A stretch of 12,043 nt of DNA, from positions 1 through 12,043 of the forward strand of contig PKZK01000048.1 in assembly GCA_003133025.1 (NCBI GenBank). The letters are read 5' to 3'. The notes under the pieces were generated by a model. It made no database searches, was not told the DNA's origin, and worked only from the letters and a program-made list of their open reading frames with translations. Position numbers and translations under genes: made by a program. The DNA comes from Vulcanimicrobiota bacterium (GTDB lineage: Bacteria > Vulcanimicrobiota > Vulcanimicrobiia > Vulcanimicrobiales > Vulcanimicrobiaceae). This document shows, piece after piece, positions 1 to 12,043 of the stretch; within the stretch, counting starts at the first letter, position 1, and each line of letters starts with the position of its first letter.

Positions 1-99
1 GAAGCAAAAAAACTTCGATTTTCTGGAGGACGGTGCAACGCTCTGCGTAAATCCCTCAGTTTAGCAGAAGTTTTTTGGTTCTTTTTTTCAAAAAAGAAC
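1..99. repeat. AT-rich intergenic palindromic repeat (partial, cut by the window start), resembling Acetobacteraceae repeats
   Basis: gaagcaaaaaaacttc (1-16) is an imperfect inverted copy of gaagttttttggttc (67-81). gttctttttt (78-87) and aaaaaagaac (90-99) form a perfect inverted repeat. The Acetobacteraceae resemblance is from recall, not from a search. Confidence 0.6.
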
Positions 100-107
100 G
101 CCTTGCT

Positions 108-215
108 TAGAGTGCGATGACAACGGGTCGAACCATGAAATGGTCCGACCTGATGTCTGAATCGCCCTCTTAGATTATTTTTAGAGGCGGATTCAGAATA
201 TGTCATCCGGCTCTA
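108..215. repeat. ~108-bp CIR/Bru-RS-like alphaproteobacterial intergenic repeat (MITE-like)
   Basis: Terminal inverted repeats tagagtgcgatgaca (108-122) / tgtcatccggctcta (201-215), 12/15 match. Internal hairpins at 126-136/140-150 (10/11) and 156-170/183-197 (13/15). Two GANTC sites (159-163, 190-194) lie in the arms of the second hairpin. Confidence 0.65.
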
Positions 216-218
216 GGG

Positions 219-296
219 TCATTTCGCCAGACCCAGGCGCGGCATCTCGATGGCCGGGCAACGGTCCATGACCACGGCGATCCCGGCGTTGCGCGC
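219..296 (-). pseudogene. yccU: 3' fragment of a YccU-like CoA-binding protein gene, in frame with the GT2
   Basis: The translation ARNAGIAVVMDRCPAIEMPRLGLAK* closely matches the recalled E. coli YccU C-terminus ARDAGLNVVMDRCPAIEIPRLGLAK*. Confidence 0.8.
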
Positions 297-1547
297 CGCC
301 GACACGCCCGCGTTCGACTGTGCGATCACGCGCACGCCGGCCGCTTCGGCCACGGCACGGGTACCGTCCGTCGACCCGTCGTCGACGACGATGATCTCCG
401 TGGGCGCAAGGGTCTGCGCGCGCACCGACTCGATCGCCGCAGCGAGATAGCGCTCGACGTTGAAGGCCGGGATGACCACGCTGACCGGCGCGCGCGGCTC
501 GGAAACTTGCTCCACGACGTTTGCGTCGGCCTTCTGTTGCGCGCGCTTCGTGCGACGCCGCAGCGCTCGCGCCGCGTCGAACACCGCACGTCCCGCCGGA
601 AGCGCCGCCGCACGCGTCGCACCGTAGAGCGCGAACGTCGTTAGGTTAAAGCGTCGCGAGAGCGCCTCCTCGAGATCGCGGCGAGCGGCATCATAGCCGC
701 CGCAGCGGAACGACTCGAATGCGGCGACGCGCTCGTGAAAGGGCCGCAGCCGGGCAAACTCTTTGGGGCACTGCGGCGAGTAACGTTCGGGCGCGACCGA
801 GGTCAGCTCGCCCAGCCGCACGATGCCGCGCGCTTGACGGCGGCGGTCGGCCGAACGGCTGTCGTGGTGCGCCACGTACGACGAGAGCACGCGCTCCACC
901 ACGAGCACGTCGCTGTAACGCAGCGCGCGTAGCAACCACTCGAGGTCTTCCGCAACCAGCGCGTCGTCGTTCTCGGGCAGATGCTCGTCGTAGAAGAGTC
1001 CGTGATCGAGCAGCCAATCGCGATCGAGCAGCAGCGTCGAGGTGCTCACGAAGTTACGGCGCACCACGAGGCGCTCCATCACCGCGCGCTCGACCCGCAC
1101 CACGCCCTCGGCCAGGGTCTTTGCGGGCGCGCGGCGGTAATGCCTAACGTTGTGCAGCGCGGAGGGCTCGCCGCGCCCGTTTGGACGCGCGATCTCGTAG
1201 TCGGAAAACGAGAGGCGAACGTCCGGAGCGCGCGCGAGCGCATCCCAATGCACGGCCAACCGGCCGCTGGTCCACGTATCGTCGGCGTCGAGCAGCGCAA
1301 TCCAAGGTTCTTGCGCCGCCCGAATGCCCGCGTTGCGCGCCGCGGCGACGCCGCGATTGGTTTGCGTCAGGACGGTGGCGCCCAAGCTGCGCGCGATGTC
1401 GCCCGTGCCGTCGGTCGAGCCGTCGTCGACGACGATGACTTCGGCCGGCTGCCGCGTTTGCGCGGCCACGTCGGCCAATGCTCTGCCGATGTGGGCGGCG
1501 GCCTGGTACGCGGGAATGACCACCGAGATCGGCAGCTTCTCCGTCAC
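219..1547 (-). CDS. Family 2 glycosyltransferase: one complete GT2 domain plus a truncated second GT2 domain fused to a foreign C-terminus
   Basis: Domain 1 has ISVVIPAY, VIVVDDGSTDGT, GVAAARNAGI and IALLDADD (DxD). The second copy has VSVVIPAFN, IIVVDDGSTDGT and GVSAARNAGI but ends before its DxD. GTG start 1 nt after the upstream stop, preceded by GGAG. Confidence 0.88.
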   Translation of the reverse strand: MTEKLPISVVIPAYQAAAHIGRALADVAAQTRQPAEVIVVDDGSTDGTGDIARSLGATVLTQTNRGVAAARNAGIRAAQEPWIALLDADDTWTSGRLAVHWDALARAPDVRLSFSDYEIARPNGRGEPSALHNVRHYRRAPAKTLAEGVVRVERAVMERLVVRRNFVSTSTLLLDRDWLLDHGLFYDEHLPENDDALVAEDLEWLLRALRYSDVLVVERVLSSYVAHHDSRSADRRRQARGIVRLGELTSVAPERYSPQCPKEFARLRPFHERVAAFESFRCGGYDAARRDLEEALSRRFNLTTFALYGATRAAALPAGRAVFDAARALRRRTKRAQQKADANVVEQVSEPRAPVSVVIPAFNVERYLAAAIESVRAQTLAPTEIIVVDDGSTDGTRAVAEAAGVRVIAQSNAGVSAARNAGIAVVMDRCPAIEMPRLGLAK

Positions 1548-1548
1548 G

Positions 1549-2970
1549 TCACGCGCTCCGTGCAGGCACGAATCCCGGACGCACCAGTCGCCGCGCGAAC
1601 GCGCGCTCCGGCCGCTCGAGATTCAAGATCAGGAAGGGCAGAGAGAGCCCGAGCCACACGAACTTCAACCACATCGGATCGATGAACATCGACTGGACCG
1701 CCAATCCGACGATCGCCGCCTCGGCGGCCATGCGGAAACCGAAGTTCTGACTGCTGCGCGGGATGACGCGCAGGGAGCGGAAGCTCATGAACCAGGCCGC
1801 GAGCAGCAAGCCCAGGCCGATGATGCCGAGTTCGACGGACATGCCCACCAGGACGTTGTGCGCCGGGCGCGTCCAACCCTGACCCGAGCGTTGATATGCC
1901 AGGAGATACACCCGTGCGTAAATCTCTTGGAACGTCCCGATGCCCGAACCGAAGAGCCAGTGGCCGCGCAAAGCCTGCAGACCCACTTGCCAGATCAACG
2001 TCCGGCCGCTGCCCGTGCCGCCGCCGTCGTCGTGCAAGAAGCGCTCCCACACCAGCGGGTAGCGGAAGAGCAAAGCGACGAAACCCGCGACCATCAGCCC
2101 CACCTGGGTCAGGCTTCGGCTACGAACGGCGAAATAGGCGAACATCAAGCCCAAGGCGATGAATGCGCCGCGCGAGCCCGAGACGATCACGCCGAGCATC
2201 AGCGCAGCCGTAGCCGCCCAGCAGACGACCCTCAACCATAAGCGCTTCGTGACGACCGAGACCGAGAACGCGAAGGCCAGCGGCACGATGAAGCTCGTTG
2301 CGAAGAAGTTCTGGTCGACCACGTTTCCGTTGCCGCCGACGATCGAGAGACGGCTGCTGCCGCCGCCGAGTCCGCCGTTCGCGATCACGGCGTAGGCCAC
2401 GCTCGCGACGCCGGCGCCGACCATGATCGCAACGATCGTCTTGAAGTCGCGCCGCGTGATCGGATACATGGCGAGCACGGTCATCAGGCCGAAATTCTGC
2501 GCCAGGATGCCGTAGATGAGCCGGCCGTGATCGAAATCGAGCGACCAAAACATCGTCAAGCCGCACCACGCGATAAATGAAAGCCAGACGTACCAGGCGG
2601 GCCGCAAACGCAACATGTGGCGCGTCAACAGCATCCGCGTCACGAGCGCCACGACGGTCAGAATGCCCAGCACGCGCAGCAGCGTCGCGCCGCTCGTCAC
2701 CGAGAGCAACGGGTCGAACGGCATCAACGCGAGGAACAGCCCAAACGGGAAGATGATCGGTGCGCGCAAGAGCGCGAAGAGCGCGATCGGCGCGACGGCC
2801 AGCGCGAGTCCGAATTTCGGAAGGTGGAAGCCCGACGGCCCGCTCGCTCCGGCGACGGACTTGGCCACCACGAGTACGTAGAGCGCGATGCCCACGGCGA
2901 GCGCCGCCTTCGTCCAGAAGCCGCGCCGGTTGCCGGCAGGGCTCGCGAGCATCCTTGCCTGCGCGTACAT
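1549..2970 (-). CDS. O-antigen ligase family / Wzy-like polysaccharide polymerase (Wzy_C domain)
   Basis: Many hydrophobic segments; motifs DQNFFA, SGSRGA, GSGRTLIW, GSGIGTF and AHNVLV...ELGIIGL. Start chosen at ATG 2970, which overlaps the upstream stop (TGATG). Confidence 0.85.
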   Translation of the reverse strand: MYAQARMLASPAGNRRGFWTKAALAVGIALYVLVVAKSVAGASGPSGFHLPKFGLALAVAPIALFALLRAPIIFPFGLFLALMPFDPLLSVTSGATLLRVLGILTVVALVTRMLLTRHMLRLRPAWYVWLSFIAWCGLTMFWSLDFDHGRLIYGILAQNFGLMTVLAMYPITRRDFKTIVAIMVGAGVASVAYAVIANGGLGGGSSRLSIVGGNGNVVDQNFFATSFIVPLAFAFSVSVVTKRLWLRVVCWAATAALMLGVIVSGSRGAFIALGLMFAYFAVRSRSLTQVGLMVAGFVALLFRYPLVWERFLHDDGGGTGSGRTLIWQVGLQALRGHWLFGSGIGTFQEIYARVYLLAYQRSGQGWTRPAHNVLVGMSVELGIIGLGLLLAAWFMSFRSLRVIPRSSQNFGFRMAAEAAIVGLAVQSMFIDPMWLKFVWLGLSLPFLILNLERPERAFARRLVRPGFVPARSA

Positions 2971-3326
2971 CAGATGACCGAAAGCGCTCGGCGCAGGTCC
3001 GATATGAGGTGTTCTTCGCCGGCCCGCTTCGAGATGACGGCGCTCGCGCCCGAGACGTAGCACGAGGCCGCGTACGAAGGATCTTCGGACGCGGAATACG
3101 CGATCAGCGCGGCGTCGGGCGTGGCCTGGCGAATGCGGCAGAGCGCATTGGGACCACCGCGCTCGAAGAAGTCGACATCGACGAAAACGGCTGCGGGCGC
3201 GTGCGCCGCGATATCCTTACCGTCGATCACTTGGCTCGTCGCCACCACTTGCAATCCGGCGCCGTCGAGGCAACGCAAGAGGAAGTCGGTGAAGATGCGC
3301 TGCGGTTCGATGACATACGTGCGCAT
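2970..3326 (-). CDS. Stand-alone atypical receiver (REC) domain protein, 118 aa
   Basis: REC pattern TYVIEP / AVFVDVD / LIAYS / AVISK with no output domain. ATG 3326 is preceded by GGGGG. Confidence 0.8.
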   Translation of the reverse strand: MRTYVIEPQRIFTDFLLRCLDGAGLQVVATSQVIDGKDIAAHAPAAVFVDVDFFERGGPNALCRIRQATPDAALIAYSASEDPSYAASCYVSGASAVISKRAGEEHLISDLRRALSVI

Positions 3327-3339
3327 CAATGCCCCCGCA

Positions 3340-3984
3340 TCAGCGGACCAAACCGTGACGCACGGCGTAGACCGCGACACCGGAGCGGGCATTGACCTTC
3401 AACTTGGCCAGAATGTGGCTGACGTGGTTCTTGACGGTCTTCTCGGAGAGCGTCAGGCGCTTGCCGATGTCGCGGTTGGAGAGCCCGTCGGCGATGAGTC
3501 GCGCGATCTCGTGCTCGCGCGAGGAAAGTTCGCTCGGTTCCGGCGGACGCGCTGCGCGGCGACGTAGCATGGAACCGGCGATGCGCGGGTCGGCGTACGA
3601 GTCGCCGTTGGCCACCAGATGAACCAGTTCGATGAACGCCGCGGGCGAGGTGTCTTTGGCGACGTAGGCGTCGGCCTTGGCCGCGAGCGCGCGTTGCATC
3701 GCGCCGGGCCGGTGTTGCGCCGAGACCACGCAAATCCGGCTCTGCGGCGATACTTTTTCGCAAGCGGACAGTGCCGCTTCGATGTCGACTTCGAGTTCGT
3801 CGGCGTCGATGAAGATCAGGTCCGGCCGCAGCCGCCCGAGTTCGGCCGAACCCGGTGCGTCGGAGCGGCCGATCACGCGGATCTGCGGGTCGCGCTCGAG
3901 CAACATGGCTAGCGCTTCGGCGGCGAGCACGCGCGGTTGAACCAGGAAGACGCGGATGGTCCGCTTCCGGAGCAGCACGGTCAC
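3340..3984 (-). CDS. NarL/FixJ-family response regulator (atypical REC plus LuxR HTH)
   Basis: REC motifs DLIFID, ICVVS and AYVAK; HTH LSSREHEIARLIADGLSNRDIGKRLTLSEKTVKNHVSHILAKL. Confidence 0.93.
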   Translation of the reverse strand: MTVLLRKRTIRVFLVQPRVLAAEALAMLLERDPQIRVIGRSDAPGSAELGRLRPDLIFIDADELEVDIEAALSACEKVSPQSRICVVSAQHRPGAMQRALAAKADAYVAKDTSPAAFIELVHLVANGDSYADPRIAGSMLRRRAARPPEPSELSSREHEIARLIADGLSNRDIGKRLTLSEKTVKNHVSHILAKLKVNARSGVAVYAVRHGLVR

Positions 3985-3990
3985 CGGACT

Positions 3991-6162
3991 CTATGCTCCC
4001 GACAGTTCGACGGGTTGTGCGTCCGTGGTGCGGCCGTGATAGATCGACCGGCTGTCGGGCTTGGCGCCGTTGAGCACCGCGCCGAGCAGATTGACGGGTC
4101 CCAGTGCGAAGAGCTTGGAGAGCGCGGTCTGCACCGAACGCGCGTCGGAATGTTGTGCCGAGATGACCATCACGGCTCCGTCGGCCTGGCGTGCCAGCAC
4201 GGCACCGTCGACGATCGAGCGCAGCGCCGGCGTATCGATGATGATCGCGTCGAAGCGCTCCGCGGCCTTGGTGAGCACGCGCCGGAAGCCTTCGCCCTGC
4301 AACAGACCCACCGGGTTCGGCGCGGGTTTACCCGCGGTCAAAACCCACACGTTCTGGTGCCGCGTGCCCTGCACGGCCTCTTCGAACCGCGCCATGCCCA
4401 CGAGCACGTCGGAGAGGCCGCGCTCGTTGGAGACGTTGAGCTTCTCGTGTACCGCCGGGCGGCGTAGATCCGCATCGACGATCAGCACGCGGCCGCGCAT
4501 CAAGCCCATGCTGATCGCGGTGTTCACCGCAACGGTCGACTTGCCGTCACCCTGTTCGGGGCTCACGAAGGCGATCGAACGCGACGGTTTGTCGGACGAA
4601 TAGCGCAGTGCCGCAACGAGTTGATAGAAGGCTTCAACCGAGAGCGGCTTCACCCACTGATTCACGCGCCAATCCGTCGCGTCGATCTGCGGGACGGTTG
4701 CGAGCACGGGCAAGCCCAAGCGGTCGCGCACGTCGTCCTCCGTGCGAAAGCGGCTGTCGAGGAAATCGGCGCCGAGCGCGGCCATGAGTGCGAGGAAGAG
4801 TCCGACGATCGCGCCCAGCACGACGTTGACCGAAAGGTTCGGCGAGACCGAAGCCACGTTCGGGTCGGCGGCTTGCGTGATGGTCACGTCCGAGAGCGCG
4901 GTGGTGCGCGCGATGATCGCTTCCTGATACTTGCGCGAGAGCGCGTCGTAGACGGCTTCGGCAGTCTTCGACTCACGCTCCAGGTCGCCGATGCGGCGCG
5001 CCTGATCGGGCAGCTTGTCCAGTCGCGGGCGGAGCGCATCGCGCTGCTGGCGCAGCGTGGCCACTTGCGCCGTTGCGCCCGAGGCCGTCGACTCCAGCGT
5101 GCTGACCTGTTGCTCGAGCGCTTCGTACGTGGGGTTCGGAATCGTCGACGAACCGGCCCCGACCTGGGCGGGCTGTCCCTTGAGCTCGCGTTGAGCGGCA
5201 GCGAGTTGGTTGCGCAGGTTGATGACGGTGGGATGCGCGTCGGTATACTGGTGGCGCGCCGAGTCGAGTTGACCTTGCAGCGTCGCGACCTGTTGCTCGA
5301 TCTGGGCGCGGACCGGATTGGCGCTCACGTTCTCTTGGCCGGTGATGGTCGCGGGCGTTGAGGCCAACTGCCCGCGAACGACGCCGAGCTGCGCTTCGGC
5401 TTGATCGGCTTCGAGTTGGGCCTGCTGCTCTTTCGCCTCGAGCGCCGCCAGGCTGTCGATGTCGGACTTGGTCTGCGAAGGCAAATCGGCGATGCCCGTG
5501 CGCACCTGATAGGCCGCAAGCGCCGATTGCGTCGCCTGCATGCGGTGCTGAGCTTCGGGCAACTGCTGATCCAAGAAACCAATGGCCGTCTCAGCTTGCT
5601 GAGAAACCAAATGACGCTCGCGTTCGACGAAGACGCCCGCGTACGTGTTCGCGATCTGTGCGGAGAGCTGCGGATCGGTCCAGGCGACCTTGAGGCTCAG
5701 GATCGAGGTATCGGTCACCGGACGCACGATCACGTGGCTCAGCAGCGATCCGACGGAAGCGTGCAACTTCAGGCGGTCGATGACGTCCTGCGCCACCGGC
5801 GATTGCTGCAGCAACTCGGCGTAGGTTTCGGGCGTCTTGCCGCCTCCGGAAGCCAGCAGCGCGTTGAGGATCGGCAGTGCGCTCGAGTCGCCGGTGCTTC
5901 CCGACTGGTCCGAACTCCCGCCAAATCCGGCGATCAATTTTACTTCGGTGGTGTACTGCTTGTGCTGCAGGAGCGTGAACACGATGACCGCGCCGAGAAA
6001 ACCGCCGAAGACGGCGAGCATGAGCTTGCGGCGGCGCACCAGCGTCGCCCAGACGCGGCCGAAGTCGACGTCGCGCGGCTCGTCGGGCGGCACGCCGAGC
6101 GAAGGCGGCGGCGCAGCGGTGGCGGGTGGACGCGCGAAGCCGCGTTGGTATCGATCGAGCAT
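3991..6162 (-). CDS. wzc: Polysaccharide copolymerase / BY-kinase (Wzc/GumC-like)
   Basis: Two TM segments flank a long coiled-coil region. Walker A SPEQGDGKST, A' VLIVDADLRRP, Walker B IIIDTP, C-terminal LLGAVLN. Confidence 0.92.
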   Translation of the reverse strand: MLDRYQRGFARPPATAAPPPSLGVPPDEPRDVDFGRVWATLVRRRKLMLAVFGGFLGAVIVFTLLQHKQYTTEVKLIAGFGGSSDQSGSTGDSSALPILNALLASGGGKTPETYAELLQQSPVAQDVIDRLKLHASVGSLLSHVIVRPVTDTSILSLKVAWTDPQLSAQIANTYAGVFVERERHLVSQQAETAIGFLDQQLPEAQHRMQATQSALAAYQVRTGIADLPSQTKSDIDSLAALEAKEQQAQLEADQAEAQLGVVRGQLASTPATITGQENVSANPVRAQIEQQVATLQGQLDSARHQYTDAHPTVINLRNQLAAAQRELKGQPAQVGAGSSTIPNPTYEALEQQVSTLESTASGATAQVATLRQQRDALRPRLDKLPDQARRIGDLERESKTAEAVYDALSRKYQEAIIARTTALSDVTITQAADPNVASVSPNLSVNVVLGAIVGLFLALMAALGADFLDSRFRTEDDVRDRLGLPVLATVPQIDATDWRVNQWVKPLSVEAFYQLVAALRYSSDKPSRSIAFVSPEQGDGKSTVAVNTAISMGLMRGRVLIVDADLRRPAVHEKLNVSNERGLSDVLVGMARFEEAVQGTRHQNVWVLTAGKPAPNPVGLLQGEGFRRVLTKAAERFDAIIIDTPALRSIVDGAVLARQADGAVMVISAQHSDARSVQTALSKLFALGPVNLLGAVLNGAKPDSRSIYHGRTTDAQPVELSGA

Positions 6163-6165
6163 CGG

Positions 6166-7080
6166 CTACGGCACCAACAGACGGCCGATGCCGAGGATCG
6201 TGCCCAGGAGATCGGCTCCGTTGATGTGTTTGCTCGCCTGGGGCACGTAGACCACGTCGCCCTTCTGCAATTCGATGTCCTTACCGACGTCTTCGCTCTT
6301 GACGATCTCGTAGATGTTGACGGTCTGCACGATCGACTTACCGTCGGGGCCGGTGCGGCGCACGACCACGCGATTGAGGTCCGGATTGAGTCCGGGATTC
6401 GTGCCGGCGCGCGCGATGGCGGCGAGCACGCGATCGCCTTGATGCAGCAGCACGTCGCCGGGATGGTCGACCGCGCCGAAGATCTGCACGTTGAGCGTCA
6501 GCGGCGAGGGCACGTACACGGTCATCTCGTTTTCCACCGGCAGGTTCAGGCTGACGTTGCCTTCGTGCAGCAGACCTTGCAGCGAAACTTCTTTGACGGT
6601 GCCGCCCGGGCTCTGCAGGCGGGCGTTAGGCAGGTCGCCGTCGGTCGGTCCGAGGCCGCCGGCCGCCGCGATCGCATCGGTCAGGCGGCTCTCGGGCTGC
6701 AGCGAATACTTGCCGGGCAGTTTGACGTTGCCCAGCACCAGCACGTCGACCGGACCCACTTGCGCGACCGCGACGGTCACGCTGGGATCGCGAAGGTATT
6801 TGCCCAGCGCCTTGACGACCGCGACGGAGGCGGCGCTGGTGGTGAGTCCCGCGACCTTCACTTCACCCGCGAGCGGCATGCCGATCGTGCCGCCCGGCAA
6901 TACGCGCAAGGCGGGTTGGGTCAACGATGCTTCGTTGTACACGGTCACGCTGAGCGTATCGCCGACGCGGATCAGGTAGTCGCCCGGCACCGTGGCTGCG
7001 CGAGCGCTTGCGGCCGGGAGACAGAACAGCGCCGCGAGCACTGCCGCCAAAAACGCGCGGCCGGTCAAAATCGCCTTCAT
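6166..7080 (-). CDS. wza: Polysaccharide export protein (Wza/OPX family, Poly_export domain plus SLBB repeats)
   Basis: Signal peptide, then DYLIRVGDTLSVTVY, GTIGMPLAGEVKVAGLT, VLGNVKLPGKY, IFGAVDHPG and LQKGDVVYVP. Start is ATG 7080 (alternative ATG 7107). The longer ORF extension overlaps the GT4 and is spurious. Confidence 0.88.
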   Translation of the reverse strand: MKAILTGRAFLAAVLAALFCLPAASARAATVPGDYLIRVGDTLSVTVYNEASLTQPALRVLPGGTIGMPLAGEVKVAGLTTSAASVAVVKALGKYLRDPSVTVAVAQVGPVDVLVLGNVKLPGKYSLQPESRLTDAIAAAGGLGPTDGDLPNARLQSPGGTVKEVSLQGLLHEGNVSLNLPVENEMTVYVPSPLTLNVQIFGAVDHPGDVLLHQGDRVLAAIARAGTNPGLNPDLNRVVVRRTGPDGKSIVQTVNIYEIVKSEDVGKDIELQKGDVVYVPQASKHINGADLLGTILGIGRLLVP

Positions 7081-7088
7081 CGCCGTCA

Positions 7089-7154
7089 AGCATACGTCGA
7101 AACGCATGGCCAACCGAAGACCCGGAACGTCCCGCGGGCTAGGTCCAAGGTCCC
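7089..7154 (-). promoter_or_regulatory. Putative internal leaderless promoter for wza with tandem DosR-like boxes
   Basis: -10-like TATGCT (7094-7089) lies 8 nt before ATG 7080, with no SD. Box AGGTC-caag-GTCCC at 7141-7154 and a second GTCCC half-site 21 bp away (7129-7133). Confidence 0.45.
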
Positions 7155-7157
7155 GGT

Positions 7158-8378
7158 TCAACGCGCGGGCTCCGGGACCACGGCCGGGACCGGCGGAGCG
7201 TATCCGGCCAAGCGAAGGAGGCGCTTCGTCGTCTCGCCGACGGCGAACTCGGCCCGCACGAAATCGCGCCCGCGGTTCCCTGCGGCCCGCCGCTCGGCCG
7301 GATCGCCCAGGTAGCGCTCGAGACCGGCGGCCAAAGCGCCAGCATCGCGTTGCGAGACCAGTTCGCCCGTGCCCGGGACCACCAGTTCGTCGAGGCTGCC
7401 CGTCCGCGTCGCCACGATGGGCAGGCCCGCGGCCATCGCCTCCATCAGTGCGACCGGGATGCCTTCGCGTTCGCCGGGACGCTCGGTGCTGGCCAAAACC
7501 GCCAGATCGTACGCGCCCGCGGCGAGCGCAGCGGTCAGTTGCTCGTGCGGCACGTTGCCCAAGAAGCGCAGCCGGTCGGCGATGCCGAGGCGCTCCGCGA
7601 GCGCGGTGAGTTCCTCGCGCAAGTCGCCGTCGCCGGCCAAGTCGCAACTGAACGCATAGCCGCGCTCGCGCAACGTGCGCAGGGCTTCGAAAAGATAGAT
7701 GTGGCCCTTGACCGGATGCAAACGCGCGATGCACACGATCCGCGAGGCGCGCTCCGGCGCCTGCGCCGTCGTCTCCGGCAACTCGACCCCGAGATGGCCG
7801 ACGACGCAGCGCGCAGCCAGTTCCGGCGGGAGTTCCCGGCGCATGCGCCGGCAATTGCGTTCGGAGATCACGCGCGTGAAGCGAGCGGAGCGCACTTTCT
7901 CGGCGACGAGATTACGCGCGAAGATGTCGTGCGAATGCGCGCTGATGCTGTACTCCACGCCGGTCAGTTGGGACACGACGTAGGCCAAGGTTGCGGGCGT
8001 GGTGAGCCACGCCGCGTGCACGTGATCGACGCCGAGCCGGCGCACTTCGGCCGCGACCGCCAGCGCCTTAGGCAGCGTCATCAGGTTCACCACGCGCGAA
8101 CGCCGCGAACTCGCGCCGAACAGGACGTCGCCCAGCACGCGCAACGCCTTTGCGGGCGCCCGTAAGAACTCGCGCAAGGCGAGCGCGGCGACTCGCGCGG
8201 AGAACAACGGCAGGTGGAGAGCCTCGACGCCGAGCGCGGGATACGCGGAAACGGCCGAGGGCGGACGGACCGGCACGACGATCACGTCCACCTCGCGGGC
8301 CAGCGCGCGGATTTCGGGCTCGAAGAATTGCTCTTCGGGCGCAAATGGGAAGAGCGAGGTGACGTACGCCATCTTCAC
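7158..8378 (-). CDS. GT4 glycosyltransferase (WcaL/AmsK-like)
   Basis: HVHAAW, YSISAHSHDIF, IARLHPVKG and EGIPVALME (EX7E). The GTG start overlaps the upstream stop (GTGA). Confidence 0.92.
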   Translation of the reverse strand: MKMAYVTSLFPFAPEEQFFEPEIRALAREVDVIVVPVRPPSAVSAYPALGVEALHLPLFSARVAALALREFLRAPAKALRVLGDVLFGASSRRSRVVNLMTLPKALAVAAEVRRLGVDHVHAAWLTTPATLAYVVSQLTGVEYSISAHSHDIFARNLVAEKVRSARFTRVISERNCRRMRRELPPELAARCVVGHLGVELPETTAQAPERASRIVCIARLHPVKGHIYLFEALRTLRERGYAFSCDLAGDGDLREELTALAERLGIADRLRFLGNVPHEQLTAALAAGAYDLAVLASTERPGEREGIPVALMEAMAAGLPIVATRTGSLDELVVPGTGELVSQRDAGALAAGLERYLGDPAERRAAGNRGRDFVRAEFAVGETTKRLLRLAGYAPPVPAVVPEPAR

Positions 8379-9478
8379 GCGGTCAACTCCCGGTAGAGGG
8401 CGGCGTGCGCCGCGATCATCGCGGTCGAATCGAACAGCGCGCGCGCCGTTTCGCGAGCGCGCGCCGCAATCAGCGGGCGCGAAGCGTCGCCGCGCGCGCG
8501 GACGAGCGCAGCCGCAACGTCGTCCGCGCTGAAGCCGGCCGTTACGTAGCCGTTCTCACCCTCGCGCACGAAGTCGTTGTGATCGCGCCACGGCGTCACC
8601 AGCGGCGCGAGGCCGCCGGACATGGCCTCGCCGAGCGCGAGCGGCATGCCCTCGCGAAACGAGGTCAAGGCGAAGAGATCCATCGCCTCCACGAGTTGCG
8701 TCGCATCGCTGCGATAGCCGAGAAATCGAACGCGTCCGTCGAGCCCGAGTTCGTTCGCGCGCGCCTTCAAGAGAGCGTCGAGCGGTCCCGTTCCGGCCAA
8801 CACGAGATGCAGGTCGGGAGCCTGCGCGCCGGCCGCGGCGAAGCCATCGAGCAGCGCGGCGTGATTCTTCTCCTCCGAGAAGCGGCCGATCGCATAGATC
8901 GCGAACGCATCGTCCGGCAGGCCGAGCGCCCGGCGCAACTCGGCGCGCGACGCCGTTGCCGGCTGCGGGCGTGCGCCGTTGGGAATGATCGCGATGCGTT
9001 CGAGCGGCACGCGCTGCTCGCGCGCGAAGCGGCGGCGTTGCGTCTCCGTAAAGACGATGAAGCGCGCCGTGCGGGCGTGCAACACGCGGTCGAGCGCCCA
9101 GCGCACCGGCCCGCCCGGTTCGCGTCCGTGAATGGTCAGCACGATCGAGGGCACGCCCGCGAGCAGGGCCGCGATGCGCCCGGGATACTGGCCGGTGTGC
9201 AGGTGCGCGTGCACGATGTCGGGCCGCAGGCGACGCAGCGTGCTCACGAGTTCGGGGAAATACGCGTAATCGCCGCGTCGGCGCCGCCCTAGGTCGACCA
9301 GAGGCACGCCCAGGCCGGCCTGGGCGCCTTCGTCGAGCCCGCTCTCGTAGACCGAGACGACGCCGGCGTCGATGCCTTCGGAGGGCAAGCCCGCACAGAG
9401 CATGCGCACGGCCGTCTCCGCGCCGCCGCCGGAGAGGGTCTGGACCAAGTGCACGACGCGCGGGGGATGGGCTGCCAC
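8375..9478 (-). CDS. GT4 glycosyltransferase
   Basis: GGGAE, PDIVHAH, IIPNG, IGRFSEEKNH and EGMPLALGE (EX7E). Confidence 0.92.
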   Translation of the reverse strand: MAAHPPRVVHLVQTLSGGGAETAVRMLCAGLPSEGIDAGVVSVYESGLDEGAQAGLGVPLVDLGRRRRGDYAYFPELVSTLRRLRPDIVHAHLHTGQYPGRIAALLAGVPSIVLTIHGREPGGPVRWALDRVLHARTARFIVFTETQRRRFAREQRVPLERIAIIPNGARPQPATASRAELRRALGLPDDAFAIYAIGRFSEEKNHAALLDGFAAAGAQAPDLHLVLAGTGPLDALLKARANELGLDGRVRFLGYRSDATQLVEAMDLFALTSFREGMPLALGEAMSGGLAPLVTPWRDHNDFVREGENGYVTAGFSADDVAAALVRARGDASRPLIAARARETARALFDSTAMIAAHAALYRELTA

Positions 9479-9486
9479 GACTTCAG

Positions 9487-9552
9487 AGGTTACGCGGGGC
9501 GCGTGGCGTCCGCGACGGTCCCAGCGTCCGCAAGCTATGGGACTTTCAGCAC
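9487..9552 (-). promoter_or_regulatory. Putative leaderless promoter for the first GT4 with DosR-like boxes
   Basis: -10-like TAACCT (9492-9487) lies 8 nt before GTG 9478, with no SD. GGGAC-tttc-AGCAC at 9539-9552 and GGTCC-cagc-GTCCG at 9517-9530. Confidence 0.4.
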
Positions 9553-9583
9553 GGTGCCGTGCCGGGTGCCCGCTTGGATCGTC

Positions 9584-10933
9584 CTACCGAAAGAGCACGA
9601 ACCCCGAAGCTGCCGGCAACGTGGCCGGCGCCGCCGGCCCGTCAAAGTCGAGCGAGCCGGTGTCGCCATAGCAGGCGCACAGGCCGTCGCCCGAGATGCG
9701 GAGCGAGTGGGCGTACGTCCCGTGCAACTCGGGCAGCGGGACCGAGCGCTCGGGTTCCGGATTGACGACCGTCGCGCATGGCCCGACCGGCTTCCCGGCG
9801 TCGTAGCAGGCCGCGAACTCACGCACGAACGCCCCGCCCGCGGCCGCGACGTCGCGGACATCCTTCGGATAGGGCCGCAGCGGACGGTAGAACGTCAAGG
9901 CCGCCTCGGGGCACACCTGGATGTGTGAGCGTTCGCCGCACGCCGCGTACCAGAACCAGGTTCGATCGGCTTCGTAGAACAGCATGACGTCGGCCAGCGC
10001 TCGCCGGCGCGCGGCGGGATCGGTCACCGCGAAGTCGACGAGCACGACGTTCTTGCCGGCACCGGTGACGTGCATGATGCCGTCGAGCCGGGTGCGCAAC
10101 ACCGGTCCCGACCAGAGATACTTGTTCTTCGGAACCGGCGAGTTGCCGTAGAAACAACCGTCGCACGCGGCACCCCAAACGTGCGCATCGGTCGCGATGA
10201 GGCGCGTCTCCGGCGAAGGCACGTGCGCCGCATCGCTCGCGAGCCCGCCGTTGAGCAGGACGGGCCGCGGCACCGCGTCGATGAGTTGCCGCATTCCGGC
10301 GACCCAGGCCGCTGCTCCGCCGTCGACGGGCGGCCTCGCGCGACCGCCAGGCGCGCCCTCGCAGGGTCCCGTGCCCTTCTCGAAGCTCGGCGCGCCCCAA
10401 CACATGTCGGCGTAAAAGTCGTCCGGCGGCGTCGCGTCGTCCAGATAGATCAGGGTGTCGTCGTGCGCGTGCAACGCGCCATCGATTGCTGCGAGCGCGA
10501 GCGCGCGCATCTGGGGCGACGACGGGTCGCCGAAGCGCTGCCAAATGCCGCCCGACTTCGTCGACAGCGGCCGTTCCGGATGACCCGGTTGCGCGTAGAA
10601 GGCGCCTTCGGGCCACGCCGAGCAGTCCGGAAACGGATAGTCGTTCTTGCCCGGTCCCGTGAGATTAGAGCATAGGTTCACATCGAGGTACCGCGCCGTT
10701 TTCATCGTCGCGGGCACCTGCGCCGTGCGTGGGGCCACCAAGAGGTCGACGTAGGGTGCAAGCGCCGTCCAGTTGCCGGCGCCGAAGGTCGCGTTGTAGG
10801 CTGCGGCCCCGTCGTTCGGAGCCACCACCGTCAACGAGTGATCGCGCGGAACCGTATCCGGCGGCGATCCGGCTCCGAGCGTGCAAACCAAAGCGAGTCC
10901 GGGTAACGTTACCCGAAGTGTGATGCAGTTCAC
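9584..10933 (-). CDS. Secreted cysteine-rich protein, putative glycoside hydrolase-like (GHL15/GH114-like TIM barrel)
   Basis: Signal-like N-terminus from GTG 10933 (start uncertain; the ORF is open to 11020). GDPSSPQMR...IYLDD and FVREF...VVNP resemble GH-like barrel families. 12 Cys lie in the predicted mature part. Confidence 0.55.
   Translation of the reverse strand: MNCITLRVTLPGLALVCTLGAGSPPDTVPRDHSLTVVAPNDGAAAYNATFGAGNWTALAPYVDLLVAPRTAQVPATMKTARYLDVNLCSNLTGPGKNDYPFPDCSAWPEGAFYAQPGHPERPLSTKSGGIWQRFGDPSSPQMRALALAAIDGALHAHDDTLIYLDDATPPDDFYADMCWGAPSFEKGTGPCEGAPGGRARPPVDGGAAAWVAGMRQLIDAVPRPVLLNGGLASDAAHVPSPETRLIATDAHVWGAACDGCFYGNSPVPKNKYLWSGPVLRTRLDGIMHVTGAGKNVVLVDFAVTDPAARRRALADVMLFYEADRTWFWYAACGERSHIQVCPEAALTFYRPLRPYPKDVRDVAAAGGAFVREFAACYDAGKPVGPCATVVNPEPERSVPLPELHGTYAHSLRISGDGLCACYGDTGSLDFDGPAAPATLPAASGFVLFR
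10900..10915. promoter_or_regulatory. Perfect 16-bp palindrome, LacI-family operator-like
   Basis: CGGGTAACGTTACCCG is its own reverse complement; the central AACGTT is typical of LacI/GalR operators. Confidence 0.4.
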
Positions 10934-10934
10934 A
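10919..10934. promoter_or_regulatory. CRP/FNR-family binding site (perfect CRP consensus)
   Basis: TGTGA-tgcagt-TCACA, 10/10 match to TGTGA-N6-TCACA. Confidence 0.6.
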
Positions 10935-11124
10935 ACGTGACCCAGCGCACCATGAAGAAACTCCCCTTGCGTCCTACGTCTCTGCTTCATGAGGGCCGAT
11001 GACGGAAGTACATGGTCCATGCAGTTACCACGCTGCCGTCAGCGTTGGTCCCACTCGTCCAGCACCTCGAACGTGAAAGGCGCATGCTCGTTTTACCGGT
11101 CGTGAAGCCCTCGCCGCTCCGAAA

Positions 11125-11140
11125 GGTGATGCAGGTCATA
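11125..11140. promoter_or_regulatory. Second CRP-like site in the divergent promoter region
   Basis: GGTGA-tgcagg-TCATA, 8/10 match; shares GTGATGCAGnTCA with the 10919 site. Confidence 0.45.
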
Positions 11141-11161
11141 GGGCCCAACGTGTGGCGCGGA

Positions 11162-11175
11162 CGGTCCATCGGCCC
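11162..11175. promoter_or_regulatory. DosR-box-like site upstream of the + strand regulator
   Basis: CGGTC-catc-GGCCC followed by CAA; a GGGCC half-site lies 21 bp upstream (11141-11145). Confidence 0.35.
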
Positions 11176-11265
11176 CAAGCAGATGGGCTACCCTCTTCCA
11201 CGGATGTCGCACTAGTGCGCGATTCTGAGCGCGCGGTAGTTTCGCATCCCGAGGACTCCGCCAGA

Positions 11266-11901
11266 GTGACAGCTTTGGGTTTACGCGTCGCGGTCATTGA
11301 ATCCCAAGTTCTCTTTGCCAAGGCGCTTTGCGGCATCTTTTCCGACGATTCCGAATTCAAGGTCGTCGGCGACTTTCGTACGCCCGTGGCGGCCCCGCTG
11401 CAGCACGCGGCGCCGGATCTGATCGTCCTCGATCTCGACGGACAACCTGCCGACATCGCGCAGACGCTGGGCATCTGCAAGGAATCCGCCCCGAAGGCGC
11501 GCGTCTGCGTACTGTCGATGAACCTCTCGCCCGAGATCATGCAGCGTTGCCTCTCCAATGGCGCCGAGGCGTACATCGTCAAGGACATCTCGCCCGCGGA
11601 ACTGTTGCGCGCCGTGAAAACCGTCGCCGAGGGTCAATCCTACGTCGACCCGCGCGTCGCGGGCGGCCTCTTGCGCCGGCGCAGCATGAACGGCGGGAAG
11701 CCCGACATCATGGAACTGTCCGCGCGTGAAGCCGAAGTGCTCAAGCTGATCGCCGAGGGCCTGGCCAACAAACAGATCAGCGCGCGCCTGCACCTCTCCG
11801 AGAAGACCGTCAAAAACCACGTCAGCCGCATCTTCTCGAAGCTGAACATCTCCGCCCGCACCCAAGCCGCAGTCCACGCGATCCGCGCCGGCATAGTCTA
11901 G
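11266..11901 (+). CDS. NarL/FixJ-family response regulator with a DosR-like HTH (atypical REC)
   Basis: REC motifs VAVIES, DLIVLDLD, VCVLS and AYIVK; HTH GLANKQISARLHLSEKTVKNHVSRIFSKL...RTQAAV. GTG 11266 is preceded by GAGGA (11251-11255); the ORF is open from 11152. Confidence 0.93.
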   Translation: MTALGLRVAVIESQVLFAKALCGIFSDDSEFKVVGDFRTPVAAPLQHAAPDLIVLDLDGQPADIAQTLGICKESAPKARVCVLSMNLSPEIMQRCLSNGAEAYIVKDISPAELLRAVKTVAEGQSYVDPRVAGGLLRRRSMNGGKPDIMELSAREAEVLKLIAEGLANKQISARLHLSEKTVKNHVSRIFSKLNISARTQAAVHAIRAGIV

Positions 11902-11992
11902 CCTGCACCAAGGATCGCCGTGGAAGCCCAAGCCCAACGGTTGGGCGACCCCATTCTCCCGAGACCCAACACGCGCAGTGAGATCCCGAGGG

Positions 11993-12013
11993 GACCGAAA
12001 TGGGATTTCGGCC
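11993..12013. terminator. Hairpin between the convergent regulator and tRNA (possible terminator or processing stem)
   Basis: Minus strand reads GGCCGAAAT-ccc-ATTTCGGTC, a 9-bp stem with one G-U pair. There is no clean U-tract after it on either strand. Confidence 0.3.
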
Positions 12014-12020
12014 TTAAAAA

Positions 12021-12043
12021 TGGAGGCAAGGAGACTCGAACTC
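12021..12043 (-). tRNA. 3' end of tRNA-Ala (partial; tmRNA not excluded), CCA not encoded
   Basis: Minus strand reads GAG-TTCGAGT-CTCCT (T arm), then acceptor strand TGCCTCC and discriminator A. U70, C71, C72 and A73 fit alanine identity. The anticodon lies outside the window. Confidence 0.72.

Follow-up and report, generated by a model that had tools for sequence, protein, structure and literature searches.

The exopolysaccharide (EPS) locus in the window, by which we mean the whole 12,043-nucleotide stretch analysed, encodes three proteins that appear from their sequences to be pseudo-receiver regulators of matrix synthesis, together with a GGGAC-N4-GTCCC palindrome, newly recognised here, as their candidate operator. 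P0002 and P0003 join a receiver (REC) to a LuxR-type helix-turn-helix (HTH), and P0001 is a receiver alone. We lean, with modest confidence, towards a model in which P0002 and P0003 are orphan activators of the NarL/DosR type that would bind the palindrome and drive the EPS export operon without a kinase, and in which the REC-only protein would damp them. Taken by its parts, EPS regulation through the palindrome seems quite probable, the absence of a cognate kinase is probable to a slightly lesser degree, and a role for the REC-only protein as a negative modulator is offered tentatively.

The original prediction of two REC-HTH proteins and one REC-only protein in this locus is confirmed at the level of ORF coordinates (Table 1). 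Its motif readings also hold: VIEP and VDVD in the REC-only protein, LVQP and IDAD in P0002, VIES and LDLD in P0003, the β4 Ser and β5 Lys, and the helix LSEKTVKNHVS in both HTH proteins. Pfam, a structure model and a fold search place P0002 and P0003 in the NarL/FixJ (LuxR-HTH) fold family, with REC, α6 linker and GerE HTH; the model of P0003 has a NarL-type fold with a pLDDT of 88. Both fall below the NCBIfam cut-offs for the named regulators MadR, NarL, CsgD, RcsB and EpsA (best 126 bits versus 300). A coupling of the REC-only gene to wzy had also been proposed. In the window the TGA stop of the former does overlap an ATG of the Wzy_C gene, but the arrangement is local, a same-strand wzy being next in 5/24 HTH-to-REC tandems. 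P0003 is a tRNA-linked gene; integration at the tRNA was considered, and an integrase is absent among the ORFs listed. A Pfam search with the protein that recurs in Vulcanimicrobiota EPS loci gave no convincing family. In one peat run, RNA-library contigs are identical to segments of wza, wzc and P0003, although neither transcription nor operon structure can be read from such contigs.

Table 1. Genes and candidate regulatory sites of the window.
Feature	Positions	Strand	Observations
GT2 glycosyltransferase, then start of a second GT2 domain in-frame	219..1547	-	PF00535, two stretches
Wzy_C / O-antigen-ligase-family membrane protein	1549..2970	-	PF04932 8.2e-14
REC-only pseudo-receiver (P0001), 118 aa	2970..3326	-	Pfam Response_reg 8e-09; E7-P8-Q9, D50-x-D52, K100; K-3 not aromatic
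Operon-encoded pseudo-receiver-LuxR HTH regulator P0002 (REC-GerE)	3340..3984	-	Q16-P17-R18, D60-x-D62, K110; helix KTVKN; start codon uncertain
wzc-like chain-length regulator / tyrosine autokinase	3991..6162	-	NCBIfam Wzc 2.1e-44
wza-like polysaccharide export protein	6166..7080	-	Poly_export 3.3e-21 + SLBB
-10-like hexamer TATGCT	7089..7094	-	8 nt before ATG at 7080; TAT.CT column conserved in anchored promoters
Third half-site GGGAC	7129..7133	-	21 nt downstream of main site start; column conservation 0.83, 7 anchored promoters
Candidate operator, 14-bp inverted repeat of GGGAC-N4-GTCCC type, upstream of wza	7141..7154	.	Top-scoring site on contig; same position in orthologous promoters
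Two GT4 glycosyltransferases	7158-8378, 8375-9478 (7158..9478)	-	
Weaker operator-like site upstream of glycosyltransferase pair	9539..9552	.	7.8 bits
Unknown-function protein recurring in Vulcanimicrobiota EPS loci	9584..10924	-	Start uncertain; 14-member protein cluster spanning 12 loci
Two weaker operator-like sites, gap upstream of P0003	11133-11146, 11162-11175 (11133..11175)	.	9.1, 8.6 bits; in window's top 10
Divergent pseudo-receiver-LuxR HTH regulator P0003 (REC-GerE)	11266..11901	+	E12-S13-Q14, D56-x-D58, S84, Y103, K106; K180/K183/N184

The trio belongs to a lineage-restricted Vulcanimicrobiota family. In a quick tree of 123 columns the REC-only proteins (support 99), the P0002 orthologues (100) and the P0003 orthologues (99) form clades; as the deep forks are left open, we claim no order of events. 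The nearest sequences outside the lineage, used here as an outgroup, are canonical DegU-like NarL regulators of the Bacillota, at about 31–41% identity. Conserved linkage to EPS genes, on which the original prediction depended, and synteny of the trio are both found. The trio arrangement recurs in six relatives, and 53/79 REC-HTH and 31/38 REC-only copies have a polysaccharide export gene no more than 10 kb away (wza, wzc, sugar transferase or wzy, with marker profiles built from 40 of the loci), compared with 1.5% of positions in the source genome and 0/69 outgroup loci; the genomes are kin and the counts not independent, and the context counts exclude G128, the borderline G004 and G006, three weak matches below 46% identity and a broken copy in G036. 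The other 26/79 REC-HTH copies are away from core EPS genes, and the source genome itself has two further family members outside EPS loci (contigs C125 and C129). Presence follows a similar pattern: wza occurs in 46/46 REC-HTH-positive genomes versus 6/31 REC-HTH-negative genomes of the same family, and inside one genus in 7/7 versus 5/18.

No HATPase_c match was found on the contig of the window (C53), in keeping with the predicted absence of a histidine kinase. Across the family, a kinase lies within 3 kb of 2/79 REC-HTH and 0/38 REC-only genes, as judged by a profile built from the adjacent kinases of the outgroup and matched in 68/69 outgroup loci, which supports the orphan status of the family. 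The 80%-complete source genome yielded no HisKA_3 kinase; it does hold unpaired kinases (contigs C149 and C86), beside which no regulator was seen. Other signalling genes occur at differing frequencies: GGDEF, EAL or HD-GYP genes within 5 kb of 5/79 REC-HTH copies, solo LuxR genes with sensor-like folds (GAF/PAS-LuxR) within 3 kb of 15/38 REC-only and 30/79 REC-HTH genes, and further LuxR-type genes in some EPS loci.

The receiver pocket is, by its residues, remodelled rather than dead. The trio had been described as lacking the canonical acidic pair. Only the second, Mg-binding acid (DD2) is lost, its position being occupied by P, S and P so that none of the three carries a canonical DD, but the first remains Glu in two of them; the Gln of LVQP in P0002 is private to the source genome, and Glu stands there in 10/10 orthologues. 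DD2 varies freely in the family (G, S, P, K, E, R, A) and is acidic in 7/85 REC-HTH and 0/40 REC-only proteins versus 68/68 of the outgroup; 6/85 family members have two acids. Pro at D+4 and Gly at D+8 have disappeared as well (the Gly is kept in 0/85), a pattern typical of pseudo-receivers. By the published definition, under which DD2 loss is the commonest type at about 80%, the sequences of the trio are those of pseudo-receivers (PMC12632262). The rest of the canonical active site persists: the phospho-acceptor Asp in 86/86 REC-HTH and 43/45 REC-only proteins and, within the REC-HTH family, Ser/Thr in 85/87, Lys in 84/87 and an aromatic K-3 residue in 84/85. As the Asp is kept, these are not aspartate-less receivers (ALR) of the SecR type. 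E12, Q14 and D58 (P0003 numbering) are the sole positions conserved in both subfamilies yet differing from the outgroup, and the resulting E-x-Q and D-x-D are common to REC-HTH and REC-only proteins despite about 20% identity. Activity without phosphorylation is likely; because Asp, Ser/Thr and Lys are so strongly conserved, some residual phosphorylation could still occur. A redox switch through conserved Cys was dropped, as neither P0001 nor P0002 has the β4 and the α4 Cys together.

The palindrome was first spotted by eye in the wza promoters of near relatives, and the operator matrix was trained without the source genome. In 8/12 near genomes it starts 59–60 nt before the -10-like hexamer, and four of the 12 promoters are without a strong site at this spacing. 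Half-sites are conserved at 0.83–0.91 versus 0.46–0.51 for the spacers, seeded EM gave a log-likelihood of 112.6 versus 22–47 in eight shuffles, and four of the top 10 sites of the window fall in three upstream gaps that make up 4% of positions (p about 0.003). Allowing one mismatch at most, 10/76 REC-HTH genes have a site upstream, versus 1.5% of 1107 control regions. Beyond the promoters inspected by eye, the wza signal is weak (2/33 versus 0/57 at up to one mismatch, with unequal GC). Unseeded motif discovery in all 37 wza regions, many of them coding, did not raise the palindrome above shuffles, and in the source genome the best genome-wide matches lie elsewhere than at EPS genes. Neither the wza promoter nor its -10-like hexamer was picked up by the generic sigma-70 scan; the position of the hexamer suggests that the wza transcript is likely near-leaderless. 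The two sites upstream of P0003 make its autoregulation possible.

What links the palindrome to the trio is its identity, in core and spacing, with the DosR consensus box, which DosR reads through K179, K182 and N183 and which has a proximal site near -43.5; the likeness of helix and box to DosR is one of sequence match. KTVKN occurs in 3/24 LuxR HTHs of the source genome, all three from the family of the trio. Since the palindrome matches the core of the DosR box, and the base-reading K-T-V-K-N helix of DosR is confined to that family within the source genome, P0002 and P0003 likely activate the wza operon. The common helix alone is weak evidence because canonical DegU-like proteins carry it too: SEKTVKNHVS is present in 65/68 DD-bearing outgroup regulators, a set partly retrieved by that very pattern.

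The REC-only protein shares the pocket of the two HTH receivers but is only 18–21% identical to them, and it lacks their conserved α4 face with its M-Q-R patch; N-terminal α1 hydrophobic positions are kept in both types. Its gene directly follows a REC-HTH gene in 24/45 REC-only loci, and in eight loci it directly follows wzc with no HTH gene adjacent. REC-HTH is present in 27/27 genomes with the REC-only subtype of the window, which supports the dependence of this subtype on REC-HTH presence. No strong match to it was found in Wzc-positive, REC-HTH-negative genomes. A sister subtype occurs in 15 genomes in which a REC-HTH match was not found, and the five members examined all adjoin a solo GAF/PAS-LuxR. 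A complex prediction for P0002 with P0001 scored 0.13 (mark 0.32), a value that weighs neither way on binding. The proposed heterodimers and dominant-negative action of the REC-only protein are putative.

Together these data suggest a molecular model. Dimers of P0002 and P0003 would likely bind the palindrome upstream of wza and, needing no partner kinase, switch on the polysaccharide export operon. P0003, which is linked to a tRNA, would be the upstream activator; the operon would then yield the REC-only protein and P0002, which has the same helix and a further eroded pocket, and so close the loop. Feedback, which had been foreseen, is thus likely, as the candidate operator stands upstream of an operon encoding two of the three. 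The most likely site of input is the conserved remodelled pocket, which would sense a metal, a small ligand or a pocket-shaped partner contact in place of DD-Mg phosphoryl transfer. For the REC-only protein, the most likely role would be to compete for this input or partner rather than poison dimers through a shared α4-β5-α5 face.

Direct poisoning, in which the REC-only protein binds the receivers of the HTH proteins within a homo/heterodimer switch, was the mechanism originally proposed and we consider it unlikely. The tandem gene order, the strict co-occurrence with REC-HTH and the retained α1 hydrophobics accord with it, given that NarL-family dimers use α1-α5, that the isolated NarL receiver dimerises unphosphorylated and that BldM/WhiI offers a precedent. 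It sits poorly, however, with the low receiver identity, the missing M-Q-R patch, the loci in which the REC-only gene follows wzc and the sister subtype in genomes without a REC-HTH match. Retained phosphorylation is a little less likely again. Here the DD1 Glu and D+2 Asp would rebuild a metal site served by a distant kinase or small phosphodonor, with the REC-only protein as a phosphate sink. The near-invariant Asp, Ser/Thr, Lys and K-3 aromatic residues favour this, as do the unpaired kinases and the two family members with an adjacent kinase, and a review holds that DD changes do not always abolish phosphorylation. DD2 is nevertheless a direct metal ligand and varies freely, neither the D+4 Pro nor the D+8 Gly is kept, as is usual in pseudo-receivers, and no HisKA_3 kinase was found in the incomplete genome.

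It is improbable that the REC-only protein leaves P0002 and P0003 alone and has as its target the export machine (Wzc) or, in trans, a solo GAF/PAS-LuxR. Its place after wzc in eight loci and the frequent solo LuxR neighbours, constant for the sister subtype examined, would fit such targets; but a solo GAF/PAS-LuxR is absent from the window, and the subtype has no strong match where Wzc occurs without REC-HTH. Scarcely more credence, indeed marginally less, is due to the view that some other factor reads the palindrome, or that it is a promoter part, the trio being ordinary NarL-family orphans that travel along with EPS clusters. Its appeal lies in the weak motif signal outside the near clade, the other LuxR-type genes of some loci and the third of copies away from EPS genes. 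Set against it are the motif enrichment upstream of the family's own genes, the match to a site whose regulator has identical base-reading residues, and the agreement of family and wza presence within one genus. Our preferred reading remains that of kinase-free activators at the palindrome. A bolder extension, which we regard as doubtful, is a self-contained matrix switch in which the E-x-Q / D-x-D / K pocket would be a new ligand or metal sensor of DNA-binding and free receivers alike; the activators would read the DosR-like box, and free receivers would serve as decoys or trans-acting anti-activators of LuxR-type HTH proteins, including the receiver-less solo GAF/PAS-LuxR.

What turns bacterial pseudo-receivers on and off has been named as an unsolved problem, and a search for subclasses marked by conserved residues of their own is called for (PMC12632262). 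The family of the trio is such a subclass, with a three-residue pocket signature across proteins of about 20% identity. It also offers natural paralogues in the form of free receivers, and a candidate operator within a ready target promoter, and three small soluble proteins plus one reporter make the input testable. The trio is furthermore a candidate master regulator of EPS synthesis in a mostly uncultured phylum.

Several known systems resemble the trio in part. Among relatives of solved structure, DosR/DevR of mycobacteria is the best by sequence (E 1.6e-47), and it has the same K-T-V-K-N helix, but it carries the DD, has cognate kinases and controls hypoxia genes, so that the likeness is in the DNA-binding half and not the input. 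The DegU-like outgroup shares the recognition helix and differs in its DDH (68/68), in the adjacent kinase (68/69 loci) and in a core EPS marker found in none of 69. VpsT of Vibrio and enterobacterial CsgD are likewise atypical REC-LuxR activators of matrix synthesis; VpsT binds the vpsL promoter. VpsT is distant from the trio in sequence (E 1.6e-17; 17% identity in the fold search), and neither VpsT nor CsgD is known to have a co-encoded REC-only partner. The c-di-GMP motif of VpsT, W[FLM][TS]R at α6 and including R134, occurs in 0/87 REC-HTH and 0/45 REC-only proteins (0/132 sequences), and the PilZ c-di-GMP motif is absent from the family. By analogy with DevR, which binds c-di-GMP through its C-terminal domain according to a review, the trio may still bind this ligand. 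RcsB/RcsA is a LuxR-type pair whose heterodimer activates capsule genes; there RcsB is phosphorylated by a phosphorelay and the RcsA N-terminus is not a receiver, whereas here both are pseudo-receivers with no relay linked. SecR of Aminobacter is one of an orphan atypical NarL-family paralogue pair, forms innate dimers and binds its own and target promoters, but it lacks the Asp that is invariant in the family of the trio and controls the serine cycle (PMC13199381). A further case is the orphan NarL-type pair BldM/WhiI of Streptomyces, in which WhiI is without one acid of the acidic pair and homo- and heterodimers set the targets (PMC4125116). The Lys, too, is missing from WhiI, the system has no REC-only member, and it controls development rather than EPS; heterodimers are demonstrated there and putative here. 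Since homo/heterodimer switching of orphan atypical NarL-type regulators is already described for BldM/WhiI, that mechanism itself would not be new in the trio.

Within the window (bases 1-12043 of the 17,251-bp contig C53, from an 80%-complete, 66% GC genome, G000), the minus strand carries an unknown gene, two GT4 genes, wza, wzc, P0002, P0001, a Wzy_C gene and a GT2 gene, with P0003 oriented opposite to this set. The genome's nearest named relatives carry the label Vulcanimicrobiota (Eremiobacterota). Only 6 nt separate wzc from P0002 and 13 nt separate P0002 from P0001, whose stop overlaps an ATG of wzy. The residues cited for the three receivers in the original prediction are found in their sequences, and C53 as a whole has no HATPase_c match, in line with the lack of a kinase noted for the window. 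The atypical type makes up 5/24 receiver matches in the genome, namely the trio, a REC-HTH protein on contig C125 and a REC-only protein on C129.

Positions of the genes and elements discussed (window coordinates unless a locus is named)
Feature	Position	Strand	Description
AT-rich element	~60-110		T and A runs
GT2 frame	219-1547	-	Reads on into a second GT2 domain, covering its initial ~70 residues, then breaks off
P0001	2970-3326	-	REC-only
P0002	3340-3984	-	REC-GerE (REC-LuxR-HTH)
Palindrome	7141-7154		Candidate operator, wza promoter
Recurrent protein gene	9584-10924		430-480 aa, without Pfam family
P0003	11266-11901	+	Second REC-GerE
tRNA-like gene	12022-12043 and beyond (L001 ~1023-1075, minus strand)	-	Masked centre; ends ~120 nt past P0003
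C125 paralogue	L002 2096-2730		Third REC-HTH, KTVKN helix
C129 solo LuxR	L003 5235-6745		GAF/PAS-like

The linkage of this receiver family to EPS genes was assessed in regions of up to 20 kb fetched around nearly all matches, with genes called and clusters labelled via Pfam. Of the family copies, 53/79 REC-HTH and 31/38 REC-only ones are no more than 10 kb from a wza, wzc, sugar-transferase or wzy gene. The controls give 1.5% of positions for the own genome, which is fragmented, and 0/69 loci for the canonical DegU-like outgroup. The EPS marker profiles were derived from 40 of the scored loci and are biased toward positives. At least one EPS-linked REC-HTH copy is present in 43/46 genomes. Pfam Poly_export, which is independent of these profiles, occurs in 46/46 REC-HTH-positive versus 6/31 REC-HTH-negative genomes of the same family and, inside genus g4, in 7/7 versus 5/18, the linkage and co-occurrence counts alike being drawn from related genomes and so not independent. 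More distant families have wza without the REC-HTH family. The claimed EPS linkage is documented more fully than before. Six relatives show the trio arrangement as well: G139, G018 (without wzc), G039, G105, G138 and locus L144. Several recurrent trio loci carry an extra, degenerate REC-only gene ahead of the P0003 orthologue.

Only 2/79 REC-HTH and 0/38 REC-only copies have a kinase at a distance of 3 kb or less; as a control, a profile from the outgroup's adjacent kinases detects 68/69 outgroup loci. HisKA_3 has no match in the 80%-complete genome, which does carry kinases with no regulator seen alongside (C149, C86). A minority of loci have a GGDEF/EAL or HD-GYP gene next to the family member (L049, L059, L060, L061, L062, L147). 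The C125 paralogue stands apart from EPS genes, flanked by a PstS-like gene and a gene for a large secreted or outer-membrane protein, and G105 has a comparable PstS-linked copy (L070). In the related family f3 (L072, L073, L117) REC-HTH genes adjoin a PAS-LuxR and glycine-cleavage-like genes rather than EPS genes; in some of these members the acidic pair reads EE.

Several features of the locus edges were also observed. Contig C174 opens with the remainder of a GT2, after which sugar-transferase and further EPS genes are arranged as they are in G105 and G138, making it likely that the EPS cluster continues there. The AT-rich element is single-copy in the assembly and has high-depth matches in many unrelated contigs of four RNA libraries; it may be a repeat of wide occurrence that coincides with the contig break. 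ARAGORN makes no call on the tRNA-like gene downstream of P0003. Orthologues of P0003 are frequently near RapZ/YvcK-like genes, and the 430-480 aa protein recurs in these EPS loci, often in multiple copies.

At E<=1e-30, P0003 has matches in 50/151 genomes of the phylum, a tally that takes in the own genome and unpublished G128, with 40/71 in its own family and 1/1 and 6/9 in two related families; the remaining 69 genomes gave two borderline matches of 34-35% identity. The REC-only profile has a similar spread (63/151), and among its best 150 matches in a 50%-cluster library 77 are of at most 180 aa, 68 of which have an E-x-Q/H start. The nearest proteins outside the lineage are canonical DegU-like regulators with about 31-41% identity. 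A quick tree of the receivers groups the REC-only proteins in a single clade (support 99) and gives the P0002 (100) and P0003 (99) orthologues a clade each, so the two HTH proteins are old paralogues rather than products of a recent duplication. P0002 and P0003 share 38% identity in REC and 60% in the HTH.

The relevant sections of PMC12632262 define a pseudo-receiver as a receiver that lacks at least one of DD, D, T or K, and name loss of DD2, the direct metal ligand, as the commonest case. An acidic DD2 is found in 7/85 REC-HTH and 0/40 REC-only proteins versus 68/68 outgroup proteins; in REC-HTH proteins, Gly at D+8 is found in 0/85 and Pro at D+4 in 5/85. DD1 is acidic in 73/85 REC-HTH and 39/40 REC-only proteins and D+2 in 80/85 and 39/40, and the phospho-acceptor Asp (86/86 and 43/45) and pocket Lys (84/87 and 37/44) are retained. 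These patterns suggest a pocket that has been rebuilt and may still bind something. P0001 has only 18-21% identity to the receivers of P0002 and P0003, and the only positions conserved in both groups yet unlike the outgroup are E12, Q14 and D58 (P0003 numbering), all at the pocket, with an M-Q-R patch on alpha4 conserved in the HTH proteins only. Judged by sequence, the free receiver and the regulators would have the pocket site in common more than a dimer face. For P0003, the structural model (pLDDT 88) shows an ordinary NarL-type fold.

The original prediction cast P0001 as a dominant-negative dimer partner in a feedback switch. Made from the target operon, P0001 would be an accessory of the regulatory circuit, which fits negative feedback; direct dimer poisoning is one possible route among others. 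The mechanism has less support than claimed. Among 45 REC-only loci, the gene comes immediately after a REC-HTH gene in 24 and immediately after wzc in 8; it lies ahead of a P0003 orthologue in 6, next to a solo LuxR in 5 and beside other genes in 2. Comparison of the P0003 and REC-only tables places the P0001 subtype (E<=1e-30) with REC-HTH in 27/27 genomes and the C129 subtype in 15 genomes without a REC-HTH match. Part of PMC4549865 describes an isolated NarL receiver that can dimerise unphosphorylated and an alpha5-alpha6 loop that inhibits DNA binding; the loop is kept in many REC-only members and absent from P0001. The solo LuxR, within 3 kb of 30/79 REC-HTH genes, carries two N-terminal domains that look sensor-like; by fold they best match PAS/GAF proteins, though with low TM-scores. 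On C129 one such gene is divergent from a REC-only gene lacking the E-x-Q strand, with a SpoIIE-like phosphatase gene next in line. This LuxR/REC-only pair also occurs in genomes without a REC-HTH match.

A candidate operator at the wza promoter goes beyond what the original prediction could offer as a target. The 14-bp inverted repeat GGGAC-N4-GTCCC was first spotted by eye in wza upstream regions, and counts were made on other regions. With at most one mismatch it lies upstream of 10/76 REC-HTH genes versus 1.5% of 1107 own-genome control regions, with at most two upstream of 42/76 versus 22%, and sites with no more than one mismatch fall in EPS-gene gaps at 8/74 versus 6/713 in control gaps. 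A seeded matrix trained without G000 reaches a log-likelihood of 112.6 versus 22-47 in 8 shuffles and ranks the wza promoter site top on the contig; three upstream gaps (4% of positions) contain 4/10 top window sites (permuted-matrix p about 0.003). A strong site begins 59-60 nt ahead of a TAT.CT-like hexamer in 8/12 near genomes, and in 7 anchored promoters half-site conservation is 0.91 and 0.89, with 0.83 for a third half-site 21 nt on and 0.46-0.51 for spacers. The upstream position of the palindrome suggests a role in activation. Unseeded motif discovery on wza regions does not recover the palindrome, and, with the promoters spotted by eye set aside, the signal at wza is weak (2/33 vs 0/57; matrix p 0.014, with GC unequal). 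The best genome-wide matches in G000 are not at EPS genes; the strongest are intergenic (C103:7749, C260:13026, C255:9737, C177:8601) and may reflect a wider regulon or chance.

K-T-V-K-N occurs in only 3/24 LuxR HTHs of G000, those of P0002, P0003 and the C125 paralogue, and the best solved relative is DosR. The same core and spacing appear in a DosR consensus probe in the part of PMC5999986 consulted, and a portion of PMC13486717 has the DosR box read by K179, K182 and N183 and the hspX box centred near -43.5. DegU-like proteins carry the same recognition helix, so the match is a consistent lead, not proof.

No NCBIfam cut-off is reached by the trio proteins, and a full-text literature search, with subscription papers outside its coverage, returned no description of the REC-HTH/REC-only family or palindrome operator. 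Every element of the trio system has precedent: in the excerpts used here, heterodimers in BldM/WhiI and RcsA/RcsB (PMC4125116), VpsT (PMC3359988), SecR (PMC13199381) and DevR, which binds c-di-GMP (PMC12564702).
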